A DNA stretch of 64,000 nt from Clostridia bacterium (GCA_024405515.1 JAKSOR010000001.1:24235-88234), one strand, 5' to 3'; positions 3,223-45,885 are shown, counted from the stretch's first letter. Numbers and translations: made by a program. The notes: generated by a model not told the origin, from the letters alone.

Positions 3223-5889
3223 ATGTCAATTTTTAATGCTAATGACCGTAAAGTCTCAAAACTGAAAAAGACAGCACTTAAAGTTGATGCACTCGCATCA
3301 AAATATCAGGCTATGAGTGACGCCGAACTTTCCGGAATGACGGCTGTTCTTAAGGACAGACTTGCAAAAGGCGAAACGCTTGAACAAATTCTGCCGGATG
3401 CATTTGCAGTCGTACGTGAGGCCGGCACAAGAGTACTCGGCATGAGACACTTCTTCGTACAGATTATGGGCGGTATCGCAATCCATCAGGGAAGAATCGC
3501 CGAAATGGGAACAGGTGAAGGTAAAACTCTTGTTGCTACTCTCCCGGCATATCTTAATGCTCTTACGGGAAATGGTGTCCACGTAGTAACAGTAAACGAT
3601 TACCTGGCAACCCGTGACGCAGCATGGATGGGAAAACTTTATAAATTTCTCGGACTCAGTGTCGGTGTAGTTGTCCCTAATATGAAACCGGATGAAAAGA
3701 GAGCAGCTTATCTTTGTGATATTACATACTGCACAAACAATGAACTCGGATTTGACTTCTTAAGAGACAACATGGTTGTTAAAAAAGAGGATAAGGTTCA
3801 GCGTTCACTGAATTTTGCAATCATCGATGAGGTAGACTCAATTCTTATTGATGAGGCAAGAACACCTCTTATCATTTCAGGACGAGGAGGCAAGTCAAGC
3901 GAACTTTACAAAACTGCAAACACGTTTGCAAAACAGTGTAAAGAGGGCGATGATTTCACAATAGAAGAAAAAGAAAAGGCCATAATGCTTACTGATGACG
4001 GTATCCTGAAGGCTGAAAAGTTCTTCCATGTTGAAAATCTCACGGATATTGAGAATACAGAAATATATCATCATATCCAGCAGGCATTAAAGGCCCATAA
4101 TATGATGAAAAAGGATAAGGACTATATTGTTAATGATGGTGAGGTTCTTATTGTTGATGAGTTTACAGGCCGTGTAATGATCGGAAGACGTTACAATGAA
4201 GGATTACATCAGGCAATTGAAGCAAAGGAAGGAGTGGTAATAAGAAGTGAAAATAAGACACTTGCCACAATAACATTCCAGAATTTCTTCAGAATGTATA
4301 AAAAAATCAGCGGTATGACTGGTACTGCAAAAACCGAAGAAACCGAATTTGAGGGAATATATGCACTTGATGTCGTTACTATCCCTCCGAATCTCCCATC
4401 TCAGAGAAAAGATGACCAGGATCAGATTTATACTAAGGTTTCAGGTAAAATCACTGCAATTGTAGATGATATTATCAAGCACAATGCAACCGGGCAACCT
4501 GTTCTTGTCGGTACAGTCAGCGTTGAAAAATCCGAAGAATTAAGCAAAATCCTCAAAAAGAAAGGAATACAGCACAGTGTTCTTAATGCTAAATTCCATA
4601 AACAGGAATCTGAAATAATTGCACAGGCAGGAAAATACGGAGCAGTTACTATTGCAACGAATATGGCCGGACGTGGTACCGATATCATGCTTGGCGGAAA
4701 TCCTGATTTCCTTGCAAAACAGAAAATGGAAAAAGATGGTTATAAACTCGAAGTCATCGAAATGGCTACATCTCCTCTTCAGAGTGATGACCCTGAAATC
4801 ATTGCAGCAAAAGAAGCATACAAACACCATTATGATGCATTCAAGATAAACTGTGATGAGGAAAAGCAGAAAGTTCTTTCACTCGGTGGCCTGAGAATTA
4901 TCGGTACAGAGAGACACGAGAGCAGACGAATCGACAACCAGTTAAGAGGACGTGCAGGACGTCAGGGAGACCCGGGAAGCACAATTTTCTATATCTCAAT
5001 GGAAGATGACGTTGCAAGAATATTCGGCGGCGACAAGCTTAAGATGATAGCATCAAGATTTGCTCTTCCGGATGATCAGCCGATTGCAAATACAGTAATT
5101 ACAAAACAGATAGAGAGAGCACAGAAACTTGTTGAAGGAAGAAACTATTCTATACGTAAACAGGTTCTGAGTTATGACGATGTCATGAATGCTCAGAGAG
5201 AAATCATCTATAAAGAAAGAAGCAAAGTCCTCGACGGAATGGATGTCCATGACCAGATTCTTGATATGATTGATGACCTCGCAGAAGAAGTAATCGGTTA
5301 TTATGCTGATTATAAGATTGATTATCAGACATGGGATTATGAAGCATTTAATAACGCTCTTGAGCTCAAGATGCTCCCGAAGGGAACATCCTTAATGACA
5401 CCTGAACTCTGCTCATGCTATGACGTGTACAAACTCAAGGAAGCAGTATTAAAAGTTGCTCTTGAGGATTTCAACAAGAAGATTGAAGTAAGCACTTCTG
5501 CAGGTTTTGATTTTAAGGAACTTGAAAGAGTTGTTCTGCTTAAGACTGTTGACTCAAAATGGATGGATCATATAGATGCCATGGATGAACTCAGAAGAGG
5601 TATCGGTCTCAGGGGATACGGCCAGAGAGATCCTGTTCTTTCCTATCGTCAGGAAGGCTGGGAAATGTTTGAGGATATGGTTTCAAGAATTCATTCTGAG
5701 ACAGCCAATATTCTTCTCAAGGTTAATATTGAGATAAGAGAAGACAACGGGGAGGCAAAACTTCAGCAGGAAATTGCATCAGCAAAGAAAACAATTGTTA
5801 ATCAGAATAAAAAAATAGGCAGAAATGATCCGTGCCCGTGTGGTTCAGGACTCAAGTATAAGAACTGCTGCGGGAAGAATTTGTTATGA
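3223..5889 (+). CDS. secA: Preprotein translocase ATPase SecA
   Basis: 888 aa with MGTGEGKTL, DEVDSILIDEARTPLIISG and the C-terminal zinc motif CPCGSGLKYKNCC. Confidence 0.97.
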   Translation: MSIFNANDRKVSKLKKTALKVDALASKYQAMSDAELSGMTAVLKDRLAKGETLEQILPDAFAVVREAGTRVLGMRHFFVQIMGGIAIHQGRIAEMGTGEGKTLVATLPAYLNALTGNGVHVVTVNDYLATRDAAWMGKLYKFLGLSVGVVVPNMKPDEKRAAYLCDITYCTNNELGFDFLRDNMVVKKEDKVQRSLNFAIIDEVDSILIDEARTPLIISGRGGKSSELYKTANTFAKQCKEGDDFTIEEKEKAIMLTDDGILKAEKFFHVENLTDIENTEIYHHIQQALKAHNMMKKDKDYIVNDGEVLIVDEFTGRVMIGRRYNEGLHQAIEAKEGVVIRSENKTLATITFQNFFRMYKKISGMTGTAKTEETEFEGIYALDVVTIPPNLPSQRKDDQDQIYTKVSGKITAIVDDIIKHNATGQPVLVGTVSVEKSEELSKILKKKGIQHSVLNAKFHKQESEIIAQAGKYGAVTIATNMAGRGTDIMLGGNPDFLAKQKMEKDGYKLEVIEMATSPLQSDDPEIIAAKEAYKHHYDAFKINCDEEKQKVLSLGGLRIIGTERHESRRIDNQLRGRAGRQGDPGSTIFYISMEDDVARIFGGDKLKMIASRFALPDDQPIANTVITKQIERAQKLVEGRNYSIRKQVLSYDDVMNAQREIIYKERSKVLDGMDVHDQILDMIDDLAEEVIGYYADYKIDYQTWDYEAFNNALELKMLPKGTSLMTPELCSCYDVYKLKEAVLKVALEDFNKKIEVSTSAGFDFKELERVVLLKTVDSKWMDHIDAMDELRRGIGLRGYGQRDPVLSYRQEGWEMFEDMVSRIHSETANILLKVNIEIREDNGEAKLQQEIASAKKTIVNQNKKIGRNDPCPCGSGLKYKNCCGKNLL

Positions 5890-12931: not shown

Positions 12932-13330
12932 ATGGCTAAAAAAACGCCTAAGAAAAATACCTCAGTTGAAAAGACAGAAGTTGCAGTAGAAGAGAAGAAG
13001 GTTGCACAACCTGTAGTTCAGAAAGCTGCAGTTAATGTAGATTCAAAAACTGATAAAGCAAAAAAGAAGCCGGATAACAAAAAGCAGGCTCAGAAAAAAG
13101 ACTCTGAAAAGAAGCCTAATATCTTCAAGAGAATGGGTAAAGGACTCAAGGGTATTTTCTCAGAACTTAAAAAGGTTACATGGCTTAAAGGAAAAGACGT
13201 TGCTAAAAATACAGCAGTAGTTTTAACAGTAGTTGTCCTGTTCTTTGTCGTTTTATTCATTATCGACTACGTATTAGCTGGTTTACTTGGCCTTGTTGTC
13301 GATGGCAAGTGGACTACAGTATTTATCTAA
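12932..13330 (+). CDS. secE: Preprotein translocase subunit SecE with a Lys-rich N-terminal extension
   Basis: The C-terminal 60 aa (ELKKVTWLKGKDV... plus a single TM helix) are typical SecE. The first approx. 65 aa are low-complexity K/A/E/V sequence. Confidence 0.88.
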   Translation: MAKKTPKKNTSVEKTEVAVEEKKVAQPVVQKAAVNVDSKTDKAKKKPDNKKQAQKKDSEKKPNIFKRMGKGLKGIFSELKKVTWLKGKDVAKNTAVVLTVVVLFFVVLFIIDYVLAGLLGLVVDGKWTTVFI

Positions 13331-13340
13331 GAGGGCTTTT

Positions 13341-13877
13341 ATGCAAAACGTAAAAACACCATTATGGTATATTCTTCATACATATACTTCCTACGAATCT
13401 AAAGTAGAGAAGAGTCTCCGTAACTTAATTGATAACAACGGACTGCAGGAGCAGATTTTTGATATCGTAGTTCCGGAATATGAAGATATTATCGAAAAAG
13501 AAGATGGTAAGAGAAAAGTTATACAGAGGAAGAAATTCCCTGGTTACGTGTTCATCAAAATGATTTATTCCGACCGTTTATGGTACCTTGTAACACAGAC
13601 AAACGGCGTTACAGGTTTCGTAGGTCCTGCCGGAAGACCAACTCCGCTTACAGAAGCAGAAATCAAGAGACTCGGACTTGAGCATCGTGAGATTGTTGAT
13701 CTTGACTTTATGCCGGGTGAACTTGTAAAAGTTGTAAACGGACCGCTCGAAGGATTTACAGGAACAGTCGAATCAGTCAGTGCAGAACGCAAAAAGATTA
13801 AAGTTATCGTTTCAATGTTTGGCCGTGAAACACCGGTTGAACTTGATTTTGAACAAGTAGAAAGAATGGCTAATTAA
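13341..13877 (+). CDS. nusG: Transcription termination/antitermination factor NusG
   Basis: Start chosen at ATG 13341; the track start at 13287 would overlap secE. WYILHTYTSYESKVEKSL and a KOW motif (GELVKVVNGPLEGFTGTV). Confidence 0.93.
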   Translation: MQNVKTPLWYILHTYTSYESKVEKSLRNLIDNNGLQEQIFDIVVPEYEDIIEKEDGKRKVIQRKKFPGYVFIKMIYSDRLWYLVTQTNGVTGFVGPAGRPTPLTEAEIKRLGLEHREIVDLDFMPGELVKVVNGPLEGFTGTVESVSAERKKIKVIVSMFGRETPVELDFEQVERMAN

Positions 13878-13967
13878 TTGGCTGAGTCGGAGGACTAAAA
13901 ACTCATGTTAAGTGGGAGATGGCAAATCTTATATACCATCGCTAAACCACGCTAGTCAGGAGGAAAT

Positions 13968-14393
13968 ATGGCTAAGAAAATTACAGCGGTTGTTAAATTA
14001 CAATTGCCAGCAGGCAAAGCGACACCGGGACCACCAGTAGGTTCATCACTCGGTCCTCACGGAATTAACATTGCCGGCTTTACAAAAGAATTCAATGAAA
14101 AGACATCAAAAGATGCAGGATTAATTATTCCTGTAATCATCACTATTTACCAGGATCGTTCATTCTCATTTGTTCTTAAGACACCACCAGCGCCAGTTTT
14201 AATTAAGAAGGCTTGCGGAATTGATAAAGCATCAGGTGCTCCTAATAAGGACAAAGTAGCAAAGATTACGAAAGACCAAGTTAGACAGATTGCACAGCAG
14301 AAAATGGTTGACCTCAATGCAGCAGATATTGATGCAGCTATGAGTATGATCGCCGGCACAGCCCGCAGTATGGGTATTGTCGTTGTTGACTAA
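13968..14393 (+). CDS. rplK: 50S ribosomal protein L11
   Basis: 141 aa, [20 protein letters not shown]. Confidence 0.98.
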
Positions 14394-14406
14394 GGAGGTA
14401 TAGAGT

Positions 14407-15099
14407 ATGAAACGCGGTAAAAATTATGTAGATTCGAAAAAACTCATCGAAGGATCAAAAGCATATGAAACTGAAGAAGCAATGAACTTAGCAGTTCAGA
14501 CAGCAAAATCCAAATTCGATGAAACTATAGAGTTACATGTTAAACTCGGTATTGACCCACGTCACGCAGATCAGCAGGTTAGAGGAGTTGTCGTACTTCC
14601 AAACGGAACAGGTAAAACTGTAAGAGTTTTAGCAATCTGTAAAGGTGCTAAAGCTGATGAGGCACAGGAAGCAGGCGCAGACTTCGTCGGCGGAGATGAA
14701 ATGGTTCAGAAGATCCAGCAGGAAAACTGGTTTGATTACGATGTAATCGTAACAACACCGGACATGATGGGTGTTCTCGGACGTTTAGGTAAAGTTTTAG
14801 GACCAAAGGGCTTAATGCCAAACCCGAAGAGCGGAACAGTATCAATGGATATTGCAAAAGCTATCAAGGACATTAAAGCTGGTAAAGTTGAATACAGAGT
14901 TGACAAACAGGCTATCGTTCACTGCCCATTCGGTAAGAAGTCATTCGGAGCAGAAAAACTCCTTGAGAACTTCAACACATTAATGGATGCTCTTGTAAAA
15001 GCAAAACCGGCAGCAGCAAAGGGTGTATATTTAAAATCTGTTTATATTACATCCACAATGGGCCCAAGTATCAAAGTTAACTACAAGATCAACATGTAA
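14407..15099 (+). CDS. rplA: 50S ribosomal protein L1
   Basis: 230 aa; L1 family sequence following rplK. Confidence 0.97.
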
Positions 15100-15114
15100 T
15101 TGCATTTAAATCGT

Positions 15115-15143
15115 TTGACTTAAATTAGCAGTTATAATATTAT
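15115..15143 (+). promoter_or_regulatory. Promoter of rplJ-rplL
   Basis: TTGACT (15115-15120), 17-nt spacer, TATTAT (15138-15143). The -35 module is identical to the str promoter. Confidence 0.5.
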
Positions 15144-15297
15144 TAATACATTCCAAAGACAGCAAGTGGAGAAATCCGTAAGCACAGCGCTTGCCGAGGA
15201 TGAGCTAAATACCTAAAGTAATTATGCGTCATTCTCGTTTGGAATGGCGCATTAAATTTTTATAGGGTAAACCTATTGACTATTATAGGAGGTAATA
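15144..15297 (+). promoter_or_regulatory. Ribosomal protein L10 leader with terminator-type attenuator
   Basis: Located between rplA and rplJ. Hairpin ATGCGTCATTC (15224-15234) / GAATGGCGCAT (15242-15252), followed by TAAATTTTTAT. Confidence 0.6.
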
Positions 15298-15795
15298 ATG
15301 AATCAGGAAGTATTAGCAGCTAAAAAGGCTCAGGTCGAAGAAATCAAAGCTAAAATTCAGGCTGCAAAATCCATCGTCATCATTGACTATAAGGGACTTA
15401 CTGTTGCTGAAGATACAGCTTTCCGTAAAGAACTCAGAGAAAATGGCGTAGATTATGCAGTATTAAAGAATCGTTTAGTTAAGATTGCATTCAACGAACT
15501 CGGTTATACTCAGTTTGATGAAGCATTAAACGGACCTACAGCAGTAGCTTTTTCAGACAAGGATGCAGTTGCTCCGGCTAAATTCATTTGCAAGAACATT
15601 TCTTCATTAAAGAAGATGGCAGCAAAATGCGGTATGGTCGAAGGCGAATTCATGGATGAAGAAGGCTTAAAGAAAATCGCAGCAATCCCATCAAGAGAAA
15701 TTTTACTTTCAAAGATGCTCGGATCAATGCAGTCACCAATCACAAAACTCGCAATCTGCATCAACAAGATTGCAGAAGCAAAGGCACAGGCATAA
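15298..15795 (+). CDS. rplJ: 50S ribosomal protein L10
   Basis: 165 aa; L10 family; precedes rplL. Confidence 0.96.
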   Translation: MNQEVLAAKKAQVEEIKAKIQAAKSIVIIDYKGLTVAEDTAFRKELRENGVDYAVLKNRLVKIAFNELGYTQFDEALNGPTAVAFSDKDAVAPAKFICKNISSLKKMAAKCGMVEGEFMDEEGLKKIAAIPSREILLSKMLGSMQSPITKLAICINKIAEAKAQA

Positions 15796-15858
15796 TTGCC
15801 GCCTAGACACTCTGACATGGTCAGAACAAAAAGAAAAAATAATTAGGAGAATACAAAA

Positions 15859-16233
15859 ATGGCAGATATCAATAAACTTATGGAAGAAATCAAGGGCATG
15901 ACAGTTCTTGAATTAAACGATTTCGTTAAAGCATTAGAAGCAGAATTCGGCGTAAGCGCAGCAGCTCCAGTAGCAGCAGCAGGTGCAGGCGCAGCAGCAG
16001 ATGCAGCTCCAGCAGAAGAAAAGACAGAATTCGACGTAATTCTTAAATCTTTCGGCGCAAACAAGATTGCAGTTATCAAGGTTGTTAGAGAAGCAACAGG
16101 TCTCGGCCTTGTAGAAGCAAAAGCAGCAGTTGAAGCAGCACCAAAGGCCCTCAAGGAAGGCGTTGCAAAAGATGTAGCAGAAGCATTAGTAGCAAAATTA
16201 AAAGAAGCTGGTGCAGAAGCAGAAATCAAATAA
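15859..16233 (+). CDS. rplL: 50S ribosomal protein L7/L12
   Basis: 124 aa; Ala-rich hinge; C-terminal [15 protein letters not shown]. Confidence 0.98.
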
Positions 16234-37470: not shown

Positions 37471-38874
37471 ATGATAGTTAAATATAACAGCAAACTTCAT
37501 ATAATTACGGAGCACAATTACAAGCCTTCTCTGCAAGAGGTTGCAAACCCGAACTTACACAGAGACCTGTTCTCATATGGTCAGATACCAAAAGTCGCAT
37601 TCAATATGCGTCATGTTCCTGTAGAGGTCCCGAAGGAAATATTTATTTCTGATACGACCTTCAGAGACGGACAGCAGGCAATAGAACCGTTCTCTGTCGA
37701 AAACATTGTAGATCTTTATAAACTCATTCACAGGCTCGGTGGCCCGAACGGAATCATCAGACAGAGTGAGTTCTTCCTCTATAGCGACAAAGACAAAAAG
37801 GCTGTGGAAAAGTGTCTCGATCTTGGTTATGAATTTCCTAAAGTAACAAGCTGGATCCGTGCAAACGAAAAAGATTTTCAGTTGGTTAAGGATTTCGGAA
37901 TCAAGGAGACCGGTATTCTTGTAAGCTGCTCTGATTATCACATCTTCAAAAAGATGAATCTTACCCGTCAGCAGGCTATGGATAAATATCTTGCCATAGT
38001 TAAAATGGCTCTTGACAGAGGCATTGTTCCTCGTTGCCATTTTGAGGATATAACAAGAGCTGATTATTTCGGATTTGTTGTTCCGTTTGCTATTGAACTT
38101 ATGAAGCTCTCACGTGAAAGCGGAATTCCTATTAAAATCCGTGCATGTGACACAATGGGATACGGCGTATCTTATCCTGGTACATCTCTTCCTAGAAGCG
38201 TACAGGGTATCATTTACGGTTTCAGATATTATGCAGAAGTCCCGTCCGAACAGCTTGAGTGGCACGGCCATAATGATTTCTATAAGGCAGTAACAAACTC
38301 AGCAACAGCATGGCTTTACGGATGTTCAACCATTAACACAACTCTTCTCGGAATTGGAGAAAGAACCGGTAATACTCCTCTTGAGGCAATGTGTATCGAA
38401 TATGCATCATTAAGAGGCACAACAAACGGAATGGACCTTACTGCTATTACTGATATTGCCGATTACTTCACAAATGAAATCGGATATAATATTCCTCCTC
38501 AGACTCCGTTTGTGGGAAACAACTTTAATGTGACAAAAGCAGGTATTCATGCAGATGGTCTTTTAAAGGATCAGGAAATCTATAATATCTTCGATACAGG
38601 AAAGATTTTAAACCGTCCTCCGAGGGTAATTGTTGATGCATTCTCAGGAAACGCAGGAATTACATTCTGGATCAACAGTTATTATAAGCTTCCTACTGAG
38701 GAGAAAATCGATAAGAGTGCAGCCATCATTTCAAAGATTAAAGAACTTGTTGATAAAGAATATGCAGAAGGCAGAACAACTTCCATCTCAGATAAAGAAC
38801 TTGATTCAATGCTTGCAACTCTTGATCCTGCACTCTATGCAAAGTGCTGCAGTTATCTCACAAAGAAGCACTAA
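37471..38874 (+). CDS. HMGL-like (DRE-TIM) acyl-CoA:2-oxoacid condensing enzyme; homocitrate / Re-citrate synthase-like
   Basis: 467 aa; DTTFRDGQQA after a 60-aa N-terminal extension; WHGHNDF motif; no LeuA regulatory domain. Confidence 0.6.
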   Translation: MIVKYNSKLHIITEHNYKPSLQEVANPNLHRDLFSYGQIPKVAFNMRHVPVEVPKEIFISDTTFRDGQQAIEPFSVENIVDLYKLIHRLGGPNGIIRQSEFFLYSDKDKKAVEKCLDLGYEFPKVTSWIRANEKDFQLVKDFGIKETGILVSCSDYHIFKKMNLTRQQAMDKYLAIVKMALDRGIVPRCHFEDITRADYFGFVVPFAIELMKLSRESGIPIKIRACDTMGYGVSYPGTSLPRSVQGIIYGFRYYAEVPSEQLEWHGHNDFYKAVTNSATAWLYGCSTINTTLLGIGERTGNTPLEAMCIEYASLRGTTNGMDLTAITDIADYFTNEIGYNIPPQTPFVGNNFNVTKAGIHADGLLKDQEIYNIFDTGKILNRPPRVIVDAFSGNAGITFWINSYYKLPTEEKIDKSAAIISKIKELVDKEYAEGRTTSISDKELDSMLATLDPALYAKCCSYLTKKH

Positions 38875-38932: not shown

Positions 38933-39358
38933 ATGATTAAATTAATTACCGGAGCAAAAGGAACAGGCAAAACAAAAATAATCATTGACATGGCAAACGA
39001 CAATGTTGAAACAGCCAAAGGCGATATAGTTTTCATTACCGACACAGACAAATACAAGTTCTCTCTGCGTTATCAGATAAGACTTATCAATGTTGAGCTG
39101 CTTAAAAAAGACGGCGTCACAAGCGAAGATGCTCTCATAGGTTTCATTAAGGGAGTTCTCGCAGGAAACCATGATATTGAGACACTCTATATTGACGGCG
39201 CACACAGAATACTTAACAAACCTGTAAAGGAAATGGAAGACTTCTTCAATGATATTTACGATACGGCGATGACAACGGATACAAAGTTTGTTCTTACCGT
39301 AAGTGAAAATGAAGAAAACTTCCCTGAATTTTTAAAAAAATATAAGGCAAACGTATGA
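38933..39358 (+). CDS. Small P-loop NTPase-like protein of unknown function (141 aa)
   Basis: Walker A GAKGTGKT at residues 7-14. Possible Walker B LYIDGA. The stop overlaps the thrC start (ATGA). Confidence 0.6.
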   Translation: MIKLITGAKGTGKTKIIIDMANDNVETAKGDIVFITDTDKYKFSLRYQIRLINVELLKKDGVTSEDALIGFIKGVLAGNHDIETLYIDGAHRILNKPVKEMEDFFNDIYDTAMTTDTKFVLTVSENEENFPEFLKKYKANV

Positions 39359-40855: not shown

Positions 40856-41878
40856 ATGGCAGAATTAACAAATGAAACAGAGAAATCAGCAAAAAAAGTA
40901 TGTTTGAGTGGCATTCAGCCAACCGGAACAGTAACGCTCGGGAATTACCTTGGCGCAGTTCAGAACTGGCAGAATATGCAGAACGATTTTAATTCAATTT
41001 TCTTTATTGCCGATCTTCACGCATTAACAGTAAGACGTGATCCGTCTGAGCTCAAACAGACATCTCTTTCATTTTTTGCTCAGTTACTTGCATGCGGAAT
41101 CAATCCTGAAAAATCAATGTTATATTTCCAGTCACAGGTTCATGAGCACGCAGAACTCGCATGGATTCTGAACTGTAATACATATGTCGGTGAGACATCA
41201 AGAATGACTCAGTTTAAGGACAAGTCAGCAAAACATGCTGACAATATCAATATGGGACTTATGGATTATCCTGTACTCATGGCAGCTGATATACTTCTCT
41301 TCCAGTCTGACCTCGTACCGGTAGGAATTGACCAGAAGCAGCACCTTGAACTTACAAGGGACATTGCAATCAGATTCAATAATCTTTACGGCGAAACATT
41401 TAAGGTACCGGAAGGATACATCCCGCCGATGGGTGCAAAAATCTGCTCACTCCAGGACCCGACTGTCAAAATGTCAAAATCTGACCCGAATCCGAAAGCA
41501 ACAATATCAGTAATAGAGGATGAGGCTTCAATCATTAAGAAATTCAAGAGTGCAGTTACGGACAGCGGAAGTGAAATCGTAATGAGAGAAGACAAACCTG
41601 GTGTTTCAAACCTTATTACAATTTATGCTGCTATCGAAGGAAAAACACCTGCACAGGTAGAGGCAGAATTTGCAGGACAGGGATACGGAACGTTCAAACT
41701 CGCAGTAGGCGAGGCAGTTGCTGCTAAATTCAAACCTATTAAAGAAGATTATGAAAGACTTCTGAAGGATAAGACTTTCATTGAGAACACTGCAAAAGGC
41801 GGTGCCGAATATGCAAGTTATATTGCCCAGAAGACACTTAAGAAAGTTAAGAAGAAAGTCGGTCTTATTTCATTTTAA
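40856..41878 (+). CDS. trpS: Tryptophan--tRNA ligase
   Basis: 340 aa; class I motifs GIQPTGTVTLGNYLG and KMSKS. Confidence 0.93.
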   Translation: MAELTNETEKSAKKVCLSGIQPTGTVTLGNYLGAVQNWQNMQNDFNSIFFIADLHALTVRRDPSELKQTSLSFFAQLLACGINPEKSMLYFQSQVHEHAELAWILNCNTYVGETSRMTQFKDKSAKHADNINMGLMDYPVLMAADILLFQSDLVPVGIDQKQHLELTRDIAIRFNNLYGETFKVPEGYIPPMGAKICSLQDPTVKMSKSDPNPKATISVIEDEASIIKKFKSAVTDSGSEIVMREDKPGVSNLITIYAAIEGKTPAQVEAEFAGQGYGTFKLAVGEAVAAKFKPIKEDYERLLKDKTFIENTAKGGAEYASYIAQKTLKKVKKKVGLISF

Positions 41879-41912: not shown

Positions 41913-42773
41913 ATGTTCGGATACGTTATACCTGATAAGAACAATATGTACATAAAAGACTATAATGTCTTTACGGCATTTTACTGTGGTTTATGTAAGA
42001 CACTTGGGAAGACGGGAAGTGAACTTTCAAGACTGTGTGCTAACTATGATATGACTTTTTACAGCGTGCTTCTTCATTCAATAAAAGGTGAGGAAGTTAA
42101 ATTTGAAAAGAAAAGATGCTTTTACAGCAATAAGAAAAAAGTTGTTGTGACTGCAGATGAACTTTCAAGAAAAATAGCAGATCTTGCTGTAATGTATGTT
42201 TATTACAATGCAGAGGATGATGTCCAGGACGGGAAGAAATCCAGATGGTTTATCAAAAACGGTCTGAGCTCCAGAAAAAGAAGAGCAGCAAGAAGACTTC
42301 CTGAAATAGACAGTATGATGAAAAAGCAGTTTTCCGAACTTTATAAACTGGAAAAGGAAAACTGTGACAGCATCGACAGAGTTGCAGACTGTTTTGCATC
42401 TCTGATGAGGGACATAACAAAGCAGCTTGTTGAAACCGATTACAATATAGATACGTTCACTTATAATCTCGGGCGAATTGTTTATCTTATGGATGCGGTT
42501 GATGATGTCGAAAAAGACTCAAAGGAAGGAAGATTTAATCCGCTTATCCTTAATTACGGTAAGTGTGATAATAAAAAAGAGTACTTAGAGAAAAACAGCG
42601 AAGAACTCAGATTTCTGTTGTATTCAACATACAATAAAATGGTGGGAGCCTATGATGAGATGAATATAGTTCTTGCCGAGGGAGTTCTTTCTAATACCAT
42701 CTATCTCGGAATCAAGATGCAGATGGACAGATTACTTAATGGAGAGGAAAAATGTCAGTTAACCCGTTTGTGA
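41913..42773 (+). CDS. Conserved hypothetical protein with N-terminal MFGYV...YCGLC motif (DUF5685-like, from memory)
   Basis: 286 aa, soluble; conserved-looking N-terminus MFGYVIPDKNNMYIKDYNVFTAFYCGLCKTLGK. Confidence 0.55.
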   Translation: MFGYVIPDKNNMYIKDYNVFTAFYCGLCKTLGKTGSELSRLCANYDMTFYSVLLHSIKGEEVKFEKKRCFYSNKKKVVVTADELSRKIADLAVMYVYYNAEDDVQDGKKSRWFIKNGLSSRKRRAARRLPEIDSMMKKQFSELYKLEKENCDSIDRVADCFASLMRDITKQLVETDYNIDTFTYNLGRIVYLMDAVDDVEKDSKEGRFNPLILNYGKCDNKKEYLEKNSEELRFLLYSTYNKMVGAYDEMNIVLAEGVLSNTIYLGIKMQMDRLLNGEEKCQLTRL

Positions 42774-43411
42774 TTTTAGGAATACCACAAAGTGCAACGC
42801 AGGATGAAATCCGCAGTGCCTATGAGACTAAAAAAGCATATTATCAGGAGCATATTTTCGATGACGGAGAGGCAGGTGCCGAAGCAGCACATAATCTTCA
42901 GCTTGTCGAAACTGCCTATCAGCAGGCTATGGAATTTGTCCAGGCACAGGCAAGTGTTTCCGGTCAGGGCAATTCCGCTTTTGAACAGGTAAAGGAATAT
43001 CTCAAAAACAAGGAACCTGATGCAGCACAGAAAGCACTTGATGAAATAACATACAGAGGTGCTGAGTGGCATTATTTCCAGAGTATTATTTTCTACGAGA
43101 AAAACTGGCTCTCAGACAGCAAAAAACAGCTCGAGATGTGCGTTGAACTGGACCCTGGAAATGAAAAGTATACTAGGGCATTGGAAAATGTTAAGAAAAA
43201 AATAGATGGTTCACGTCCGTTCCAGGGAAGTGAACAGTCCGGAACGGACGGGGGCACTGCACAGAAGAGAAAGGCTACAAACAGGACCTATTCCCAGGAC
43301 CAGTCAGTAGGGCAGGATGCAGGTGATGCCTGCTGTAATGCATGCAGTACACTTATTTGTGCTGACTGCTGCTGTGAATGCTGTGGTTTTGATCTGATAC
43401 CTTGTTGCTGA
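42752..43411 (+). CDS. J-like domain (no HPD) / TPR-like protein with poly-cysteine C-terminus
   Basis: ATG behind GGAGAGG lies 22 nt inside the preceding gene. N-terminus NPFVILGIPQSATQDEIRSAYETKKAYYQEH resembles J-domain helices I-II but lacks HPD. The last 28 aa contain 11 Cys. Confidence 0.65.
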   Translation: MSVNPFVILGIPQSATQDEIRSAYETKKAYYQEHIFDDGEAGAEAAHNLQLVETAYQQAMEFVQAQASVSGQGNSAFEQVKEYLKNKEPDAAQKALDEITYRGAEWHYFQSIIFYEKNWLSDSKKQLEMCVELDPGNEKYTRALENVKKKIDGSRPFQGSEQSGTDGGTAQKRKATNRTYSQDQSVGQDAGDACCNACSTLICADCCCECCGFDLIPCC

Positions 43412-43415
43412 TATA

Positions 43416-44030
43416 ATGAAAAAACCAAGCCGTCAGGATGCAACATATTCAGTAGCACTTGCGGGAATATCTGCAGGTCTTGCACTTTTGTTTGTCTGGC
43501 TCGGAGTAATAGTCAGATACAGTACAATTGCATTCTTTGTGGCAGCTTCTCTTGCCATTATGATCCCGATGACAAAAAGATATTATATTGCATCTTTAAT
43601 CGCCTACGGAATATCCGCAGGTCTTTCTTTTGTTATAACCGGGGACATAATAACTGTTATAGGATATATTCTTTATTTTGGCCCAATCGGACTTTTATCT
43701 GCCTTTTTTATCAATATAAAACTCAGATGGTGGATTCAGCTGATAATAAAGCTTGTGTTTATCAATGGTATTCTTGCCATACTTTATTATCTTTTCGGAG
43801 CGCTTGATATTGAACTCGGATCACTTAATGTGGAGTTCTGGATGGTTGTTCTTGTCGGTTCTCCTGTACTCATTGCAATAGATTATGTAATACAACTTGC
43901 ATACAGGAAAATAGCCCAGATTATGCTTAAAGTACTGAGAGAAAAATCCACCAAGATTGTTATTTCTGAAGATAATAAGGATGAAGAAGATGAAGTTCAG
44001 GATCCGTTTGACGGAACATTCGGAGAGTAA
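43416..44030 (+). CDS. Integral membrane protein of unknown function with an acidic C-terminal tail
   Basis: 204 aa, about 5-6 TM segments. Tail is EDNKDEEDEVQDPFDGTFGE. Starts 4 nt after the preceding stop. Confidence 0.6.
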   Translation: MKKPSRQDATYSVALAGISAGLALLFVWLGVIVRYSTIAFFVAASLAIMIPMTKRYYIASLIAYGISAGLSFVITGDIITVIGYILYFGPIGLLSAFFINIKLRWWIQLIIKLVFINGILAILYYLFGALDIELGSLNVEFWMVVLVGSPVLIAIDYVIQLAYRKIAQIMLKVLREKSTKIVISEDNKDEEDEVQDPFDGTFGE

Positions 44031-44032
44031 AC

Positions 44033-45829
44033 ATGCCGGTAGATTTTAAAGAGAAATTAAAAGATGTGCCTTCAAGTCCCGGTGTCTATCTTATGCTCGA
44101 TAAGGACGGGACCGTTATTTATGTAGGTAAGGCAAAAGTCCTTAAAAACCGTCTTAAAAATTATTTTCAGAATTCAGAAAAGAGAATCAATGCTCTTGCA
44201 ATGCTTAATCACGTGGAGGATTTCAGATACATTATCTGCCAGAGCGAGACAGATGCTCTTCTGACCGAAAACAATCTGATTAAAAAGTATTCACCTAAAT
44301 ACAACATCCTTCTTAAGGATGATAAATCATACCCGTTTTTAAGAATAGATCTTAAAGAAAAGTATCCTGATATACGCCTTGTAAGGAAATTAAAAGATGA
44401 TGGCGCAAGGTATTTCGGCCCATATATGCAGAGCGTGAACATAAGGGATATATTTGACCTTATTCATACAGCATTCAAAGTAAGGGACTGTAAGAGAGAT
44501 CTCAGTTCACCGTCAAGGCCGTGTCTTAATATGCATCTTGATAAGTGTCTTGCCCCGTGCAGCGGAAATGTCAGCGAGGAAGAATACAGAAAAGAGATAG
44601 ACAAAGTAATTGAGTTCCTGAAAGGCAAGGACAGCGATGTGGAAACCATTCTCCGTGAAAGGATGACTCATTTTGCTGCTGAGGAGAACTATGAGGTCGC
44701 ATTAACCTACAGGAACAAACTGGAACTTTTAGACAAACTTGTAAGGAAGCAGGTAAGTTCACTTCCTCAGGATTATAATCTTGATATTTTTGCCCTTGAG
44801 ACGAACGGAATTATTTCGGCAGTAAATATGCTTAATGTCCGCGGAGGCAAACTGGTGGGTAGTGAAAACTTCACAATGAACTGTTTCGGCGAAGATATAA
44901 GCAGTTATATTTATCAGTTTTATGAGAATAATCCACCTCTCTGTGATGAAATAGTAACTGACGGAGTGGGTGACACTTCTTCACTTGAAGAAGCTATTAA
45001 TTCTCTTTCAGAGAAAAAAATCAGAGTCACAGTGCCTAAGCAGGGCACAAGAAAAACTCTTCTTGATACTGCTCATAAAAATGCTTATGATGCTGTAGTT
45101 AAGTACGGGACTCAGGAAGACAGAAAGGAACTCAGGACAAAGGGTGCGGTTTCCGAACTTCAGAAAATCCTTAATCTTAAATCACTTCCGTCAAGAATAG
45201 AATGCTACGATATATCCCATATTTCCGGAACTGACAAAGTGGCAAGTATGGTGGTGTTTGAGAACGGGGTTCCTAAAAAGTCACATTACAGAAAGTTTAA
45301 AATCAAGACAGTTGAAGGTAATAACGACTTTGCCTGTATGAAAGAGGTTCTTATAAGAAGACTCAGTAAATTTGATGATGAGGATGAGAGTTTTTCTTCT
45401 GTACCTGACCTTCTTTTAATAGATGGCGGTAAGGGACAGTTAACCTATGCGCTTGAGGCTCAGAAAGAAACCGGCTGTGAAAATATTGAGATATGTTCAC
45501 TTGCCGAAAGCGATGAAATAGTGTTCTTAGGAACTGATCCTAAAACCCCGGTATATATATCAAAAGACAATGTGGCGCTTCAGCTTATTCAGAGGGTCAG
45601 GGATGAAGCCCACAGATTTGCAATTACCTTCCACAGAAATCTCCGCTCAAAACACTTAAGCGAGACGAAACTCACCGAGATTCCGGGAGTAGGAAAGAAA
45701 ACTGCAATGAAACTTATAAAAGCATTCGGTTCTATTGAGGAAATTAAACATAAATCTGCCGAGGAAATAGCCGCGGTAGATGGAATTTCGCTGAATTTTG
45801 CTAAAAAATTGTTATCAGAATTAAAGTAG
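44033..45829 (+). CDS. uvrC: Excinuclease ABC subunit C
   Basis: 598 aa; GIY-YIG N-terminus (PGVYLMLDKDGTVIYVGKAKVLKNRL); C-terminal HhH. Confidence 0.95.
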   Translation: MPVDFKEKLKDVPSSPGVYLMLDKDGTVIYVGKAKVLKNRLKNYFQNSEKRINALAMLNHVEDFRYIICQSETDALLTENNLIKKYSPKYNILLKDDKSYPFLRIDLKEKYPDIRLVRKLKDDGARYFGPYMQSVNIRDIFDLIHTAFKVRDCKRDLSSPSRPCLNMHLDKCLAPCSGNVSEEEYRKEIDKVIEFLKGKDSDVETILRERMTHFAAEENYEVALTYRNKLELLDKLVRKQVSSLPQDYNLDIFALETNGIISAVNMLNVRGGKLVGSENFTMNCFGEDISSYIYQFYENNPPLCDEIVTDGVGDTSSLEEAINSLSEKKIRVTVPKQGTRKTLLDTAHKNAYDAVVKYGTQEDRKELRTKGAVSELQKILNLKSLPSRIECYDISHISGTDKVASMVVFENGVPKKSHYRKFKIKTVEGNNDFACMKEVLIRRLSKFDDEDESFSSVPDLLLIDGGKGQLTYALEAQKETGCENIEICSLAESDEIVFLGTDPKTPVYISKDNVALQLIQRVRDEAHRFAITFHRNLRSKHLSETKLTEIPGVGKKTAMKLIKAFGSIEEIKHKSAEEIAAVDGISLNFAKKLLSELK

Positions 45830-45853: not shown

Positions 45854-45885
45854 AGCAGGATTAAAAATCCTGCTTACTTTTCCCG
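45854..45885 (+). terminator. Intrinsic terminator after uvrC
   Basis: AGCAGGATT (45854-45862) / AATCCTGCT (45866-45874), then TACTTTTCCCGTTTT. Confidence 0.7.

Follow-up and report, generated by a model that had tools for sequence, protein, structure and literature searches.

Several enzymes with the isoprenoid-synthase fold, namely ComQ, PalQ and ChrPC, prenylate peptides (PMC13290415, PMC5331326), and in the comQ-comX system the modified peptide is encoded by the adjacent gene (PMC5331326, PMC13290415). In this study, we analysed three consecutive genes in a DNA stretch of 64,000 nt from a Clostridia bacterium (GCA_024405515.1, JAKSOR010000001.1:24235-88234), hereafter called the window, which encode a protein of the DUF5685 family (p1), a J-domain derivative ending in a cluster of cysteines (p2), and a polytopic membrane protein (p3). 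The p1-p2 gene pair is arranged like comQ-comX, in which the enzyme gene lies just upstream of, and overlaps, the gene of a polypeptide modified near its C-terminus. ComQ/ComX, PalQ and the P domain of ChrPC also share with p1-p2 the isoprenoid-synthase fold, predicted in the case of p1, and two Asp-rich motifs (PMC5331326, PMC13290415, PMC10853753). In contrast to ComQ and the polyprenyl synthases, to which it has no detectable sequence similarity, DUF5685 carries an extra N-terminal module with three cysteines, and p2 is a cytoplasmic J-domain protein of about 200 aa, whereas the ComX-type partner is a short exported pheromone. ComQ-like prenylation of a Trp residue was considered for p2 of the window and rejected, as its tail contains no Trp and the aromatic position of the tail is variable in the family (W/I/L/Y/F).

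The positions of all features are listed in Table 1. The p2 gene starts inside the p1 gene, whose stop codon is TGA (42771-42773), and its ATG follows the sequence GGAGAGG at a distance of 4 nt. The TGA stop codon of the p2 gene (43409-43411) is separated by the 4-nt spacer TATA from the ATG of the p3 gene, and no recognisable Shine-Dalgarno sequence was found ahead of p3 at this junction. An independent assembly (SRR17543914) contains a p2 that is 100% identical to that of the window, with equal gene lengths and spacing.

Conservation of the locus was assessed in Clostridia-like metagenome bins, covering 80 species-level genomes of the window's order (Christensenellales-like uncultured Clostridia, 47-74% identity), distant contigs with DUF5685 members of 27-39% identity (35-55% GC content), and 80 loci returned by a metagenome scan seeded with the largest distant DUF5685 cluster, which were regarded as informative when at least 650 nt were available downstream. 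Wherever the contig permits, a J gene with a cysteine tail follows p1 directly, amounting to about 160 loci in unrelated contexts. The cysteine tail is complete in 78 of the 80 genome loci, while one p2 is cut off after 45 codons and one locus has no room. The same order, p1 and then p2, was found in 9/9 informative distant contigs, and an open reading frame (ORF) with a cysteine tail lies directly 3' of p1 in all 65 of the informative metagenome loci. The overlap between both genes is also constant, with 22 nt in 80 of 86 related loci, 14 nt in three and 25 nt in one (14-25 nt in 84/86), and a Shine-Dalgarno-like GGAG precedes p2 at the same place in 85 of these 86 loci.

The loci form two branches. 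One branch, which includes the window, is linked to trpS and lacks the HPD motif of J domains in p2 (branch A; L001-L082, L086, L089, L090), and the other one keeps this motif (branch B; L083, L084, L087, L088, L092-L171). Within the window's order the wider thrC-trpS...uvrC neighbourhood is conserved as well, and therefore synteny in the window clade alone is weak evidence. In L081, L082, L086, L089 and L090 the order trpS-p1-p2-p3 is kept while the other surroundings differ. The overlapping p1-p2 pair persists where all flanks differ (L083, L084, L088 and many of L092-L171; 27-60% identity, 35-55% GC). In L083 and L084, where p1 is preceded by a phosphatase or F420-ligase-like gene and the triad is followed by rpmG-secE-nusG-rplK, p1 overlaps the cysteine-tailed J gene, which is followed by a membrane protein of about 155 aa, despite the wholly different flanks. 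Insertions pile up on both sides of the p1-p2 pair, but between the two genes only a single gap of 285 nt was seen (L087). The distant contigs are decisive for the triad as a unit.

For p3, conservation is less strict. Behind p2 it is present in every branch-A locus that has room for it and in 45 of the 53 assessed branch-B loci (about 85-100% overall), where it was counted as a small protein with at least three transmembrane segments next after p2. In the remaining eight loci (L126, L133, L134, L148, L151, L153, L161, L169) it was not detected, and where this was checked its position is taken by an unrelated gene, coding for a MutS2/Smr-like protein in L151 and L153, by a soluble protein of 297 aa in L148 and by a protein of 832 aa in L169. 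Even in near relatives the gap between p2 and p3 reaches about 975 nt. Hence p1 and p2 form an obligate, translationally coupled pair, and p3 is a frequent accessory. We regard it as very likely that the locus represents a conserved module with a translationally coupled core of a DUF5685 enzyme and a cytoplasmic, J-derived adaptor bearing a cysteine cluster, and with p3 as its usual companion. A preliminary description of the window, made from its sequence, had reported three packed genes with the overlap, the preceding GGAGAGG, the 4-nt gap and the trpS and uvrC flanks given here, all of which agree with the ORFs and NCBIfam scores. It had proposed the triad as a unit and the comparison of gene order across the three families. 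Gene order indeed proved to be conserved, also in genomes with wholly different neighbours, and the triad recurs widely, but the invariant unit is confined to p1-p2, since p3 is distant or absent in some loci.

p1 matches DUF5685 (PF18937) at model positions 1-271 of 272 (E=2.6e-69; 234.1 bits, cutoff 26.7), so that the family name given in the preliminary description was correct. Scans of Pfam and NCBIfam provided no function for p1, and the sole paper with the name DUF5685 found in the literature lists it without function. With at least 4,231 clusters (50% identity) found among 1.84 billion representatives by a profile search (E<=1e-3), the family is large. In an alignment of 142 representatives with 27-51% identity, exactly three cysteines are invariant in the family, i.e. 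C25 (142/142) and C28 (141/142), which belong to the YCGLC motif at residues 24-28, and C69 (142/142). Two groups of aspartates are conserved to the same degree, D102 and D106 (141/142 each) and D194, D198 (142/142 each) and D202 (141/142), the latter group being followed by a conserved Y/F-N-P (residues 208-210) with N209 in 142/142. Further invariant or nearly invariant positions are R40, Y45, D46, E147, D155, Y191, A195, Y208-N209-P210, N261 and G266. The window p1 has all 12 of the residues C25, C28, C69, D102, D106, E147, D155, Y191, D194, D198, D202 and N209, whose columns are conserved in 133-142 of the 142 sequences.

An AlphaFold2 model of p1 built with 52 homologues (pLDDT 90.3, pTM 0.90) is nearly all helical. 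When it was compared with the PDB using Foldseek, all of the 50 best matches were members of the isoprenoid-synthase superfamily or UbiA-type prenyltransferases, including polyprenyl, geranylgeranyl diphosphate (GGPP) and farnesyl diphosphate (FPP) synthases, MoeN5, squalene synthase (SQS) and CrtM (best matches with TM-scores of 0.55-0.58, probability 1.00 and E-values from 2e-3; probability 0.99-1.00 for most of the top 30). The two Asp motifs lie at helix ends in the model, the second one three helices after the first. DDxxD-type motifs on helices D and H are the arrangement of class-I isoprenoid synthases, and the i, i+4, i+8 spacing of the second p1 motif echoes the NSE/DTE metal triad of this fold. 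This second motif, D194-A-V-D197-D198-V-E-K-D202, is a variant of both canonical forms, DDxxD and (N/D)Dxx(S/T)xxxE. Together with the class-I synthases (trans-prenyl diphosphate synthases, SQS, phytoene synthase, CrtM, MoeN5), p1 has a predicted all-alpha fold and basic or aromatic residues around the motifs (K99, K/R188, K204, Y191, Y208). It differs from them in that the likeness is restricted to the fold level (TM-score about 0.55, 9-15% identity), in the second motif, which is D-x3-D-x3-D instead of DDxxD or NSE/DTE, and in the extra N-terminal segment. The distance between both motifs is about 92 residues in p1; in CrtM and OPPS it is about 125 residues. The N-terminal segment of about 80 residues holds the three invariant cysteines, of which the model places two in a helix and the third in a beta-hairpin, and has no counterpart in canonical class-I members. 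A redox-active CxxC as in thioredoxin or PDI was rejected, as PDI active sites matched YCGLCK only at E>=0.5 and CGLC is placed within a long helix of an all-alpha model.

From the model, a class-I isoprenoid-synthase fold is predicted for p1. The near-absolute conservation of the five acidic residues argues for a catalytically active diphosphate/Mg2+ site, so that p1 is probably an active Mg2+/diphosphate enzyme and less likely a scaffold. One divergent family member (L091:1498-2409) has N-N-L-Q-E instead of DDxxD and is the sole exception in these alignment columns; its gene has a Fer4-type ferredoxin-like gene upstream, and the contig stops ahead of the partner gene.

The relationship of p2 to J domains is visible in its N-terminal part. 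The match to PF00226 (DnaJ) reaches 18.6 bits, below the cutoff of 27.8, and only residues 5-31, i.e. helices I-II, align. A profile of the p2 family matches solved J domains, with E=8e-4 for E. coli DnaJ (1bqz) and about 1e-3 for 4j7z and 2dn9; p2 is a J-domain derivative. At the place of the HPD loop, which lies between helices II and III and is required to stimulate the ATPase of Hsp70, the window p2 has EHIFDD, as the preliminary description had stated; H34 is nearly invariant in the window clade, whereas P and D are lost. HPD is missing in the p2 proteins of the 80 window-clade genome loci and of L081, L082, L086, L089 and L090. The statement that gene 2 has no HPD is therefore right here but does not extend to the family, since the branch-B orthologues have an intact KYHPDKY (HPD in 64 of 65 loci), and the positional orthologues in L083, L084, L087 and L088 combine KYHPD with recorded matches to PF00226 that pass the Pfam DnaJ cutoff. 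Loss of HPD is lineage-specific and not family-wide. It correlates with the linkage of the module to trpS. The motif replacing HPD is itself conserved, as H-[IV]-F-D-E-G-E-x-G or R-F-x-E-G-E-x-G, and this suggests that the site has become a new interaction surface in the HPD-less p2 proteins rather than having decayed.

The middle part of p2 contains the TPR-like (tetratricopeptide repeat) segment noted before, which is present but scores weakly, with 12.2 bits against TPR_2 (PF07719; cutoff 27, E=0.22) for residues 104-137, a faint TPR_2 match in the L083 orthologue and E=0.63 for the designed protein CTPR390 against the p2 profile. A low-complexity linker (residues 151-191) leads to the cysteine tail. 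This tail, with 11 Cys in 26 residues, is the best-conserved part of p2 in both branches and was missing from the preliminary description. Its consensus in both branches is C-x2-C-x2-L-[WIY]-C-x-D-x2-C-E-C-x-G-G-D-[LF]-I-x-C-[CILF]-COOH, with at least six invariant cysteines at constant spacing, including the penultimate residue, and with conserved D, E and GGD in between. No Pfam or NCBIfam family, including those of Fe-S proteins, zinc fingers and metallothioneins, matched the tail. From its sequence, it appears to be the cysteine cluster that best fits the cysteine- or metal-dependent assembly proposed earlier; a physical complex and metal dependence of the triad are what we infer.

J proteins with cysteine segments are known from eukaryotes. 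In cysteine-string protein (DNAJC5) and Ydj1/DNAJA, as in p2, the J domain is accompanied by a segment that is rich in cysteines or has a C-terminal Cys, and in the eukaryotic proteins this segment is lipidated (palmitoylated in cysteine-string protein, farnesylated in Ydj1/DNAJA) and anchors the co-chaperone to membranes. The J domain of cysteine-string protein is among the weak profile matches of p2. Homology of p2 to these proteins is confined to the J domain, and p2 differs from them in that its HPD is degenerate in the window lineage, its lipidation is hypothetical, and its cluster is situated at the extreme C-terminus with constant spacing and conserved acidic and Gly residues. The eukaryotic lipidating enzymes (DHHC, alpha/beta farnesyltransferase) have folds unrelated to p1. 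Another parallel is the plant protein ORANGE (OR), a DnaJ-related, cysteine-rich and membrane-associated physical partner of phytoene synthase, which has the class-I fold. As in p1-p2, a DnaJ-related cysteine-rich protein is paired here with a class-I-fold isoprenoid enzyme, though evidence of homology is absent. OR has a DnaJ zinc finger (CxxCxGxG) and its own transmembrane helices but no J domain, whereas p2 has a J domain and a different Cys motif, and the membrane component is encoded by a gene of its own (p3).

p3 was described earlier as polytopic with an acidic tail, in accordance with its AlphaFold2 model (pLDDT 81.6), in which a disordered acidic tail comes after six transmembrane helices. 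The positive-inside rule makes it probable that the N- and C-terminus are both cytoplasmic. The best Foldseek match in the PDB was the energy-coupling factor (ECF) S-component RibU (5kbw; TM-score 0.56/0.65, probability 1.00, E=0.1), followed by further S-components (5edl, 5kc0, 4huq_S, 4hzu_S), all being weak (E 0.1-1, TM-score 0.4-0.65). Apart from the vitamin B3 transporter PnuC, all of the top seven matches are ECF S-components. Thus, p3 weakly resembles ECF S-components of the RibU and FolT type in its predicted six-helix bundle of about 175 residues. It differs from them by lacking a match to their Pfam families and adjoining EcfT/EcfA genes, and by its acidic cytoplasmic tail with P-F-D/E in the window clade. 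The Pfam scan assigned no family to window p3; among 31 p3 homologues no S-component family matched, and DUF2232 matched weakly in 4. No EcfA or EcfT genes were seen among the flanking genes of the loci examined. The P-F-D/E motif is conserved in the window clade (DPFDGTFGE here, PFDEF or PPFDELDD in relatives), and the acidic tail bearing it resembles the acidic C-terminal peptides bound by TPR clamps. Distant p3 proteins have no acidic tail, and their alignment to the window p3 family is marginal (hhalign E=4e-4, probability 34%). Conservation within the module is lowest for p3. At the fold level, the earlier statement that no function can be assigned to the triad has become sharper for p1, with its predicted class-I isoprenoid-synthase fold, and weakly so for p3, with its resemblance to S-components. 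Judged from sequence, the module falls outside the ComQ group (no Trp acceptor, no sequence membership), the canonical J proteins (no HPD here) and the ECF S-components (no family match).

For the function of the module, we tentatively favour that p1 prenylates cysteines of the p2 tail and thereby anchors p2 at the membrane beside p3, a possibility that has to be regarded with reserve. p1 would be an enzyme that has the class-I isoprenoid-synthase fold and requires Mg2+, with D102-D103-x-x-D106 together with D194/D198/D202 binding an allylic prenyl diphosphate. C25, C28 and C69 would bind a metal, probably Zn, which would activate a thiolate of the C-terminal cysteine cluster of p2, and the tail would then be S-prenylated by p1. 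Zinc sites with three Cys ligands and a free fourth position are characteristic of enzymes that alkylate thiols, e.g. MetH and BHMT. The lipidated p2 would be anchored at the cytoplasmic membrane face beside p3, whose acidic cytoplasmic tail could, in the window clade, dock on the TPR-like segment of p2. Where a lineage has kept HPD, DnaK would be brought to the membrane by the anchored J domain. As HPD is degenerate in the window lineage, the J-like/TPR part of p2 would have to act there as a DnaK-independent adaptor. What we infer, beyond the gene structures, families, predicted folds, invariant residues and obligate p1-p2 linkage shown above, is the substrate and metal, the modification, the complex and its place at the membrane. 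S-prenylation was ranked first because of the constant pairing of p1 with the cysteine-tailed p2, the comQ-comX-like layout, the three invariant cysteines, the eukaryotic precedents of lipidated J proteins and the conservation of the acidic residues of p1.

Several points weigh against S-prenylation. The fold-match statistics of p1 are moderate (TM-score about 0.55, E>=2e-3). No isoprenoid synthase was found when DUF5685 profiles of 52 and 142 members were searched against all PDB sequences, and none of the 142 members matched PF00348, PF00494, PF03936 or PF19086 at E<=1. A tie between DUF5685 and the isoprenoid synthases at the sequence level was thus rejected, and because sequence-profile methods give no connection, the assignment of p1 is one of predicted fold and motifs without family membership. 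The spacing of the p2 tail and its conserved D, E and GGD equally suggest a folded metal-binding knot. S-prenylation also leaves p3 without a necessary role. HPD was lost in a whole branch in which all else was kept, which is explained neither by prenylation nor by the metallo-enzyme discussed below; as the J-like fold, the TPR-like segment and the tail are retained, Hsp70 stimulation is not indispensable to the module. Finally, all characterised peptide prenyltransferases similar to trans-isoprenyl diphosphate synthases target Trp and not Cys (2026 review, PMC13290415).

In the main alternative, which we hold to be doubtful though worth serious attention, the p2 tail binds a metal or an Fe-S cluster, the cysteines of p1 hold a cluster or Zn, and the module is a membrane-associated enzyme complex that uses a prenyl diphosphate to produce or alter a free isoprenoid lipid. 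p2 would then be a cluster donor or an electron-transfer, stabilising or regulatory subunit, comparable to ORANGE with phytoene synthase or to HscB with IscU, and the role of p3 would be to bind the hydrophobic substrate or product within the membrane. The fold of p1 and its invariant Asp motifs are compatible with this, and in the window p1 the motif Y-x-K-x-x-DDxxD as well as D-x3-D with a subsequent G-R-F-N-P resemble motifs of squalene and phytoene synthases; SQS and CrtM are also among the fold matches. At least six invariant tail cysteines at constant spacing, interleaved with D, E and GGD, are what is expected of a folded metal knot. The three invariant cysteines of p1 equal the number of ligands of open-site [4Fe-4S] clusters, as known from IspG and IspH with three Cys ligands each. 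The hosts are anaerobic Clostridia, and the best fold matches of p3 are ligand-binding ECF S-components. However, known Fe-S, zinc-finger and metallothionein families gave no match to the tail, the combination of J domain and TPR would be an unusual framework for a subunit that transfers electrons, and DnaK-dependent cluster transfer is hard to reconcile with the branch-wide loss of HPD. Moreover, 8 of the 53 branch-B loci do without p3.

A role in salvage or uptake starts from p3, which would be a solitary S-component-like binder of a micronutrient or a prenylated cofactor, e.g. a quinone precursor, with p1 processing the ligand in the cytoplasm and p2 coupling both. We consider this unlikely. 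It would suit the S-component and PnuC matches of p3, the regular position of p3 after p2 in branch A and in most of branch B, and the many hosts that are gut organisms with small genomes, e.g. a Christensenella-like metagenome-assembled genome of 1.65 Mb, but the fold matches in question are weak, S-component Pfam families do not match p3, the protein is the least conserved one and absent in some loci, EcfA/EcfT were not seen beside the module in the loci examined, and the cysteine tail is left unexplained. Slightly less probable still is a non-catalytic assembly factor, with p1 being only a scaffold or chaperone partner of p2 for some membrane protein complex. Class-I-fold proteins with non-enzymatic roles do exist, e.g. 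the phytoene-synthase-like NDUFAF6, which acts in complex I assembly; p2 derives from a chaperone, and the module is found in a housekeeping context (trpS and uvrC, or secE and nusG). The near-absolute conservation of the five acidic residues, the three cysteines, E147, D155, Y191 and N209 at 27-51% identity resembles an active site and speaks against it. That the three genes are neighbours through shared ancestry only, as the equally conserved thrC-trpS-...-uvrC neighbourhood in the window's order could suggest, is effectively refuted by the p1-p2 overlap, which persists with every flank different, and by the insertions, which flank this pair and enter it in L087 only.

Table 1. Features of the p1-p2-p3 locus, with positions counted from the first nucleotide of the window.
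Feature	Position	Strand	Description or evidence
Gene 1 (p1)	41913..42773	+	286 aa; DUF5685 protein, predicted class-I isoprenoid-synthase fold
CGLC (C25, C28) of p1	41985..41996	+	Alignment; putative metal site together with C69 (42117-42119)
First Asp-rich motif of p1, DDVQD (D102-D103-x-x-D106)	42216..42230	+	Alignment, model; C-terminal end of predicted helix 83-105
Second acidic motif of p1, DAVDDVEKD (D194, D198, D202; i, i+4, i+8)	42492..42518	+	Alignment, model; end of predicted helix 177-197
Shine-Dalgarno sequence GGAGAGG of gene 2	42741..42747	+	Direct sequence reading; within the final p1 codons
p1/p2 overlap, 22 nt	42752..42773	+	ORF coordinates; translational coupling
Gene 2 (p2)	42752..43411	+	219 aa; J-domain derivative, TPR-like segment, low-complexity linker, C-terminal cysteine cluster
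EHIFDD of p2 at the HPD loop position	42848..42865	+	Translation, profile alignment; residues 33-38
TPR-like helical segment of p2, including AEWHYFQSIIFYEKNW...DPGNEKY	42977..43201	+	Residues 76-150; motif kept in both branches
C-terminal cysteine cluster of p2, DACCNACSTLICADCCCECCGFDLIPCC	43325..43408	+	Last 28 residues; 11 Cys within the final 26 residues
Gene 3 (p3)	43416..44030	+	204 aa; predicted six-helix membrane protein, acidic C-terminal tail
Acidic tail of p3, ...EDNKDEEDEVQDPFDGTFGE	43944..44027	+	Translation
First terminator-like hairpin downstream of the triad, after uvrC	45854..45874	+	Terminator scan

The genes flanking the triad in the window are trpS (TIGR00233; 343 bits, cutoff 177), which ends at 41878 and leaves a gap of 34 nt to p1, and uvrC (TIGR00194; 567 bits), whose ATG at 44033 lies 2 nt past the p3 stop codon; both genes score above their NCBIfam equivalog cutoffs. 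No terminator-like site was found on the + strand from trpS to the end of uvrC, and the first such hairpin follows only after uvrC (Table 1), which suggests co-transcription of the triad with its neighbours in this genome. As GGAGAG is located inside the last p3 codons and the p3-uvrC gap has only 2 nt (junction at 44021-44035), uvrC looks translationally coupled to the triad in this genome, too. In most relatives the distance from p3 to uvrC is 0.4-4 kb (about 4.3 kb in L050), and the tight junction is shared only by the L073-L075 group. A functional tie of the module to trpS, e.g. a tRNA-dependent peptide extension, was rejected, since trpS is an ordinary equivalog and the branch-B modules are not beside trpS. 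In distant HPD-bearing lineages, the triad stands immediately upstream of rpmG-secE-nusG-rplK (L083:7008-10497, L084:7010-10428), so the module recurs among core housekeeping genes. The window itself contains nusG-rplK-rplA, an L10 leader (15135-15265) and rplJ-rplL at 12932-16233, some 26 kb ahead of the triad.

In one subclade, the spacer between p2 and p3 has 300-975 nt (L017:7482-8456, L033:4452-5020, also L002, L004, L019, L026 and L032). It consists of one to several copies, some of them inverted, of a unit of about 125 nt (in L033 at 4584-4706 and 4842-4963), and a convincing ORF is absent. One copy occurs elsewhere, at L032:427-544, and the unit is absent from the window. A known RNA was rejected for these long spacers, as they gave no Rfam match; the unit resembles a small intergenic repeat, dispersed or in tandem, which has invaded the p2-p3 junction.

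Further upstream in the window, an ORF of 141 aa (38933-39358) with the Walker-A-like sequence GAKGTGKT lies between a LeuA-like gene and thrC and has no NCBIfam match. ORFs of about 135-141 aa without family are also found ahead of thrC or trpS in L082, L086, L089 and L090, the one in L086 with a faint ATPase_2 match, and the group may represent a conserved small P-loop protein. The LeuA-like gene (37471-38874) encodes an HMGL-like protein of 467 aa of the LeuA/homocitrate/citramalate synthase type, which is far below all NCBIfam equivalog cutoffs, with nifV homocitrate synthase as best match (151 bits, cutoff 463).

The module is conserved across Clostridia. It was not described in the literature searched on DUF5685, bacterial cysteine-string J proteins and bacterial S-prenylation; its parts come from known superfamilies (J domain, class-I isoprenoid-synthase fold, possibly an S-component-like protein), and their combination is undescribed there. 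It may constitute an undescribed bacterial protein-lipidation or metallo-enzyme system. For DUF5685, a fold is now predicted and an active site proposed, and the family is tied to an obligate partner in which nothing but the Cys tail is conserved universally. The HPD-bearing and HPD-less branches offer a natural experiment on the role of a J domain after loss of the Hsp70 contact. Since the characterised peptide prenyltransferases of this type target Trp (PMC13290415), a Cys-directed one would be new. We put forward, as a tentative suggestion at best, that DUF5685 represents the first case of a class-I isoprenoid-synthase fold used for prenylating protein cysteines and the module a dedicated prokaryotic S-prenylation system. 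If, instead, the p2 tail binds a metal or an Fe-S cluster, anaerobes would have in this module a new isoprenoid metallo-enzyme associated with the membrane. If S-prenylation holds true, it would represent a new class of protein-lipidation enzymes and the first endogenous protein S-prenylation system of bacteria, with a lipid-anchored J or J-like adaptor as the bacterial counterpart of farnesylated Ydj1 and cysteine-string protein, and this system would be widespread in Clostridia, including human-gut lineages.

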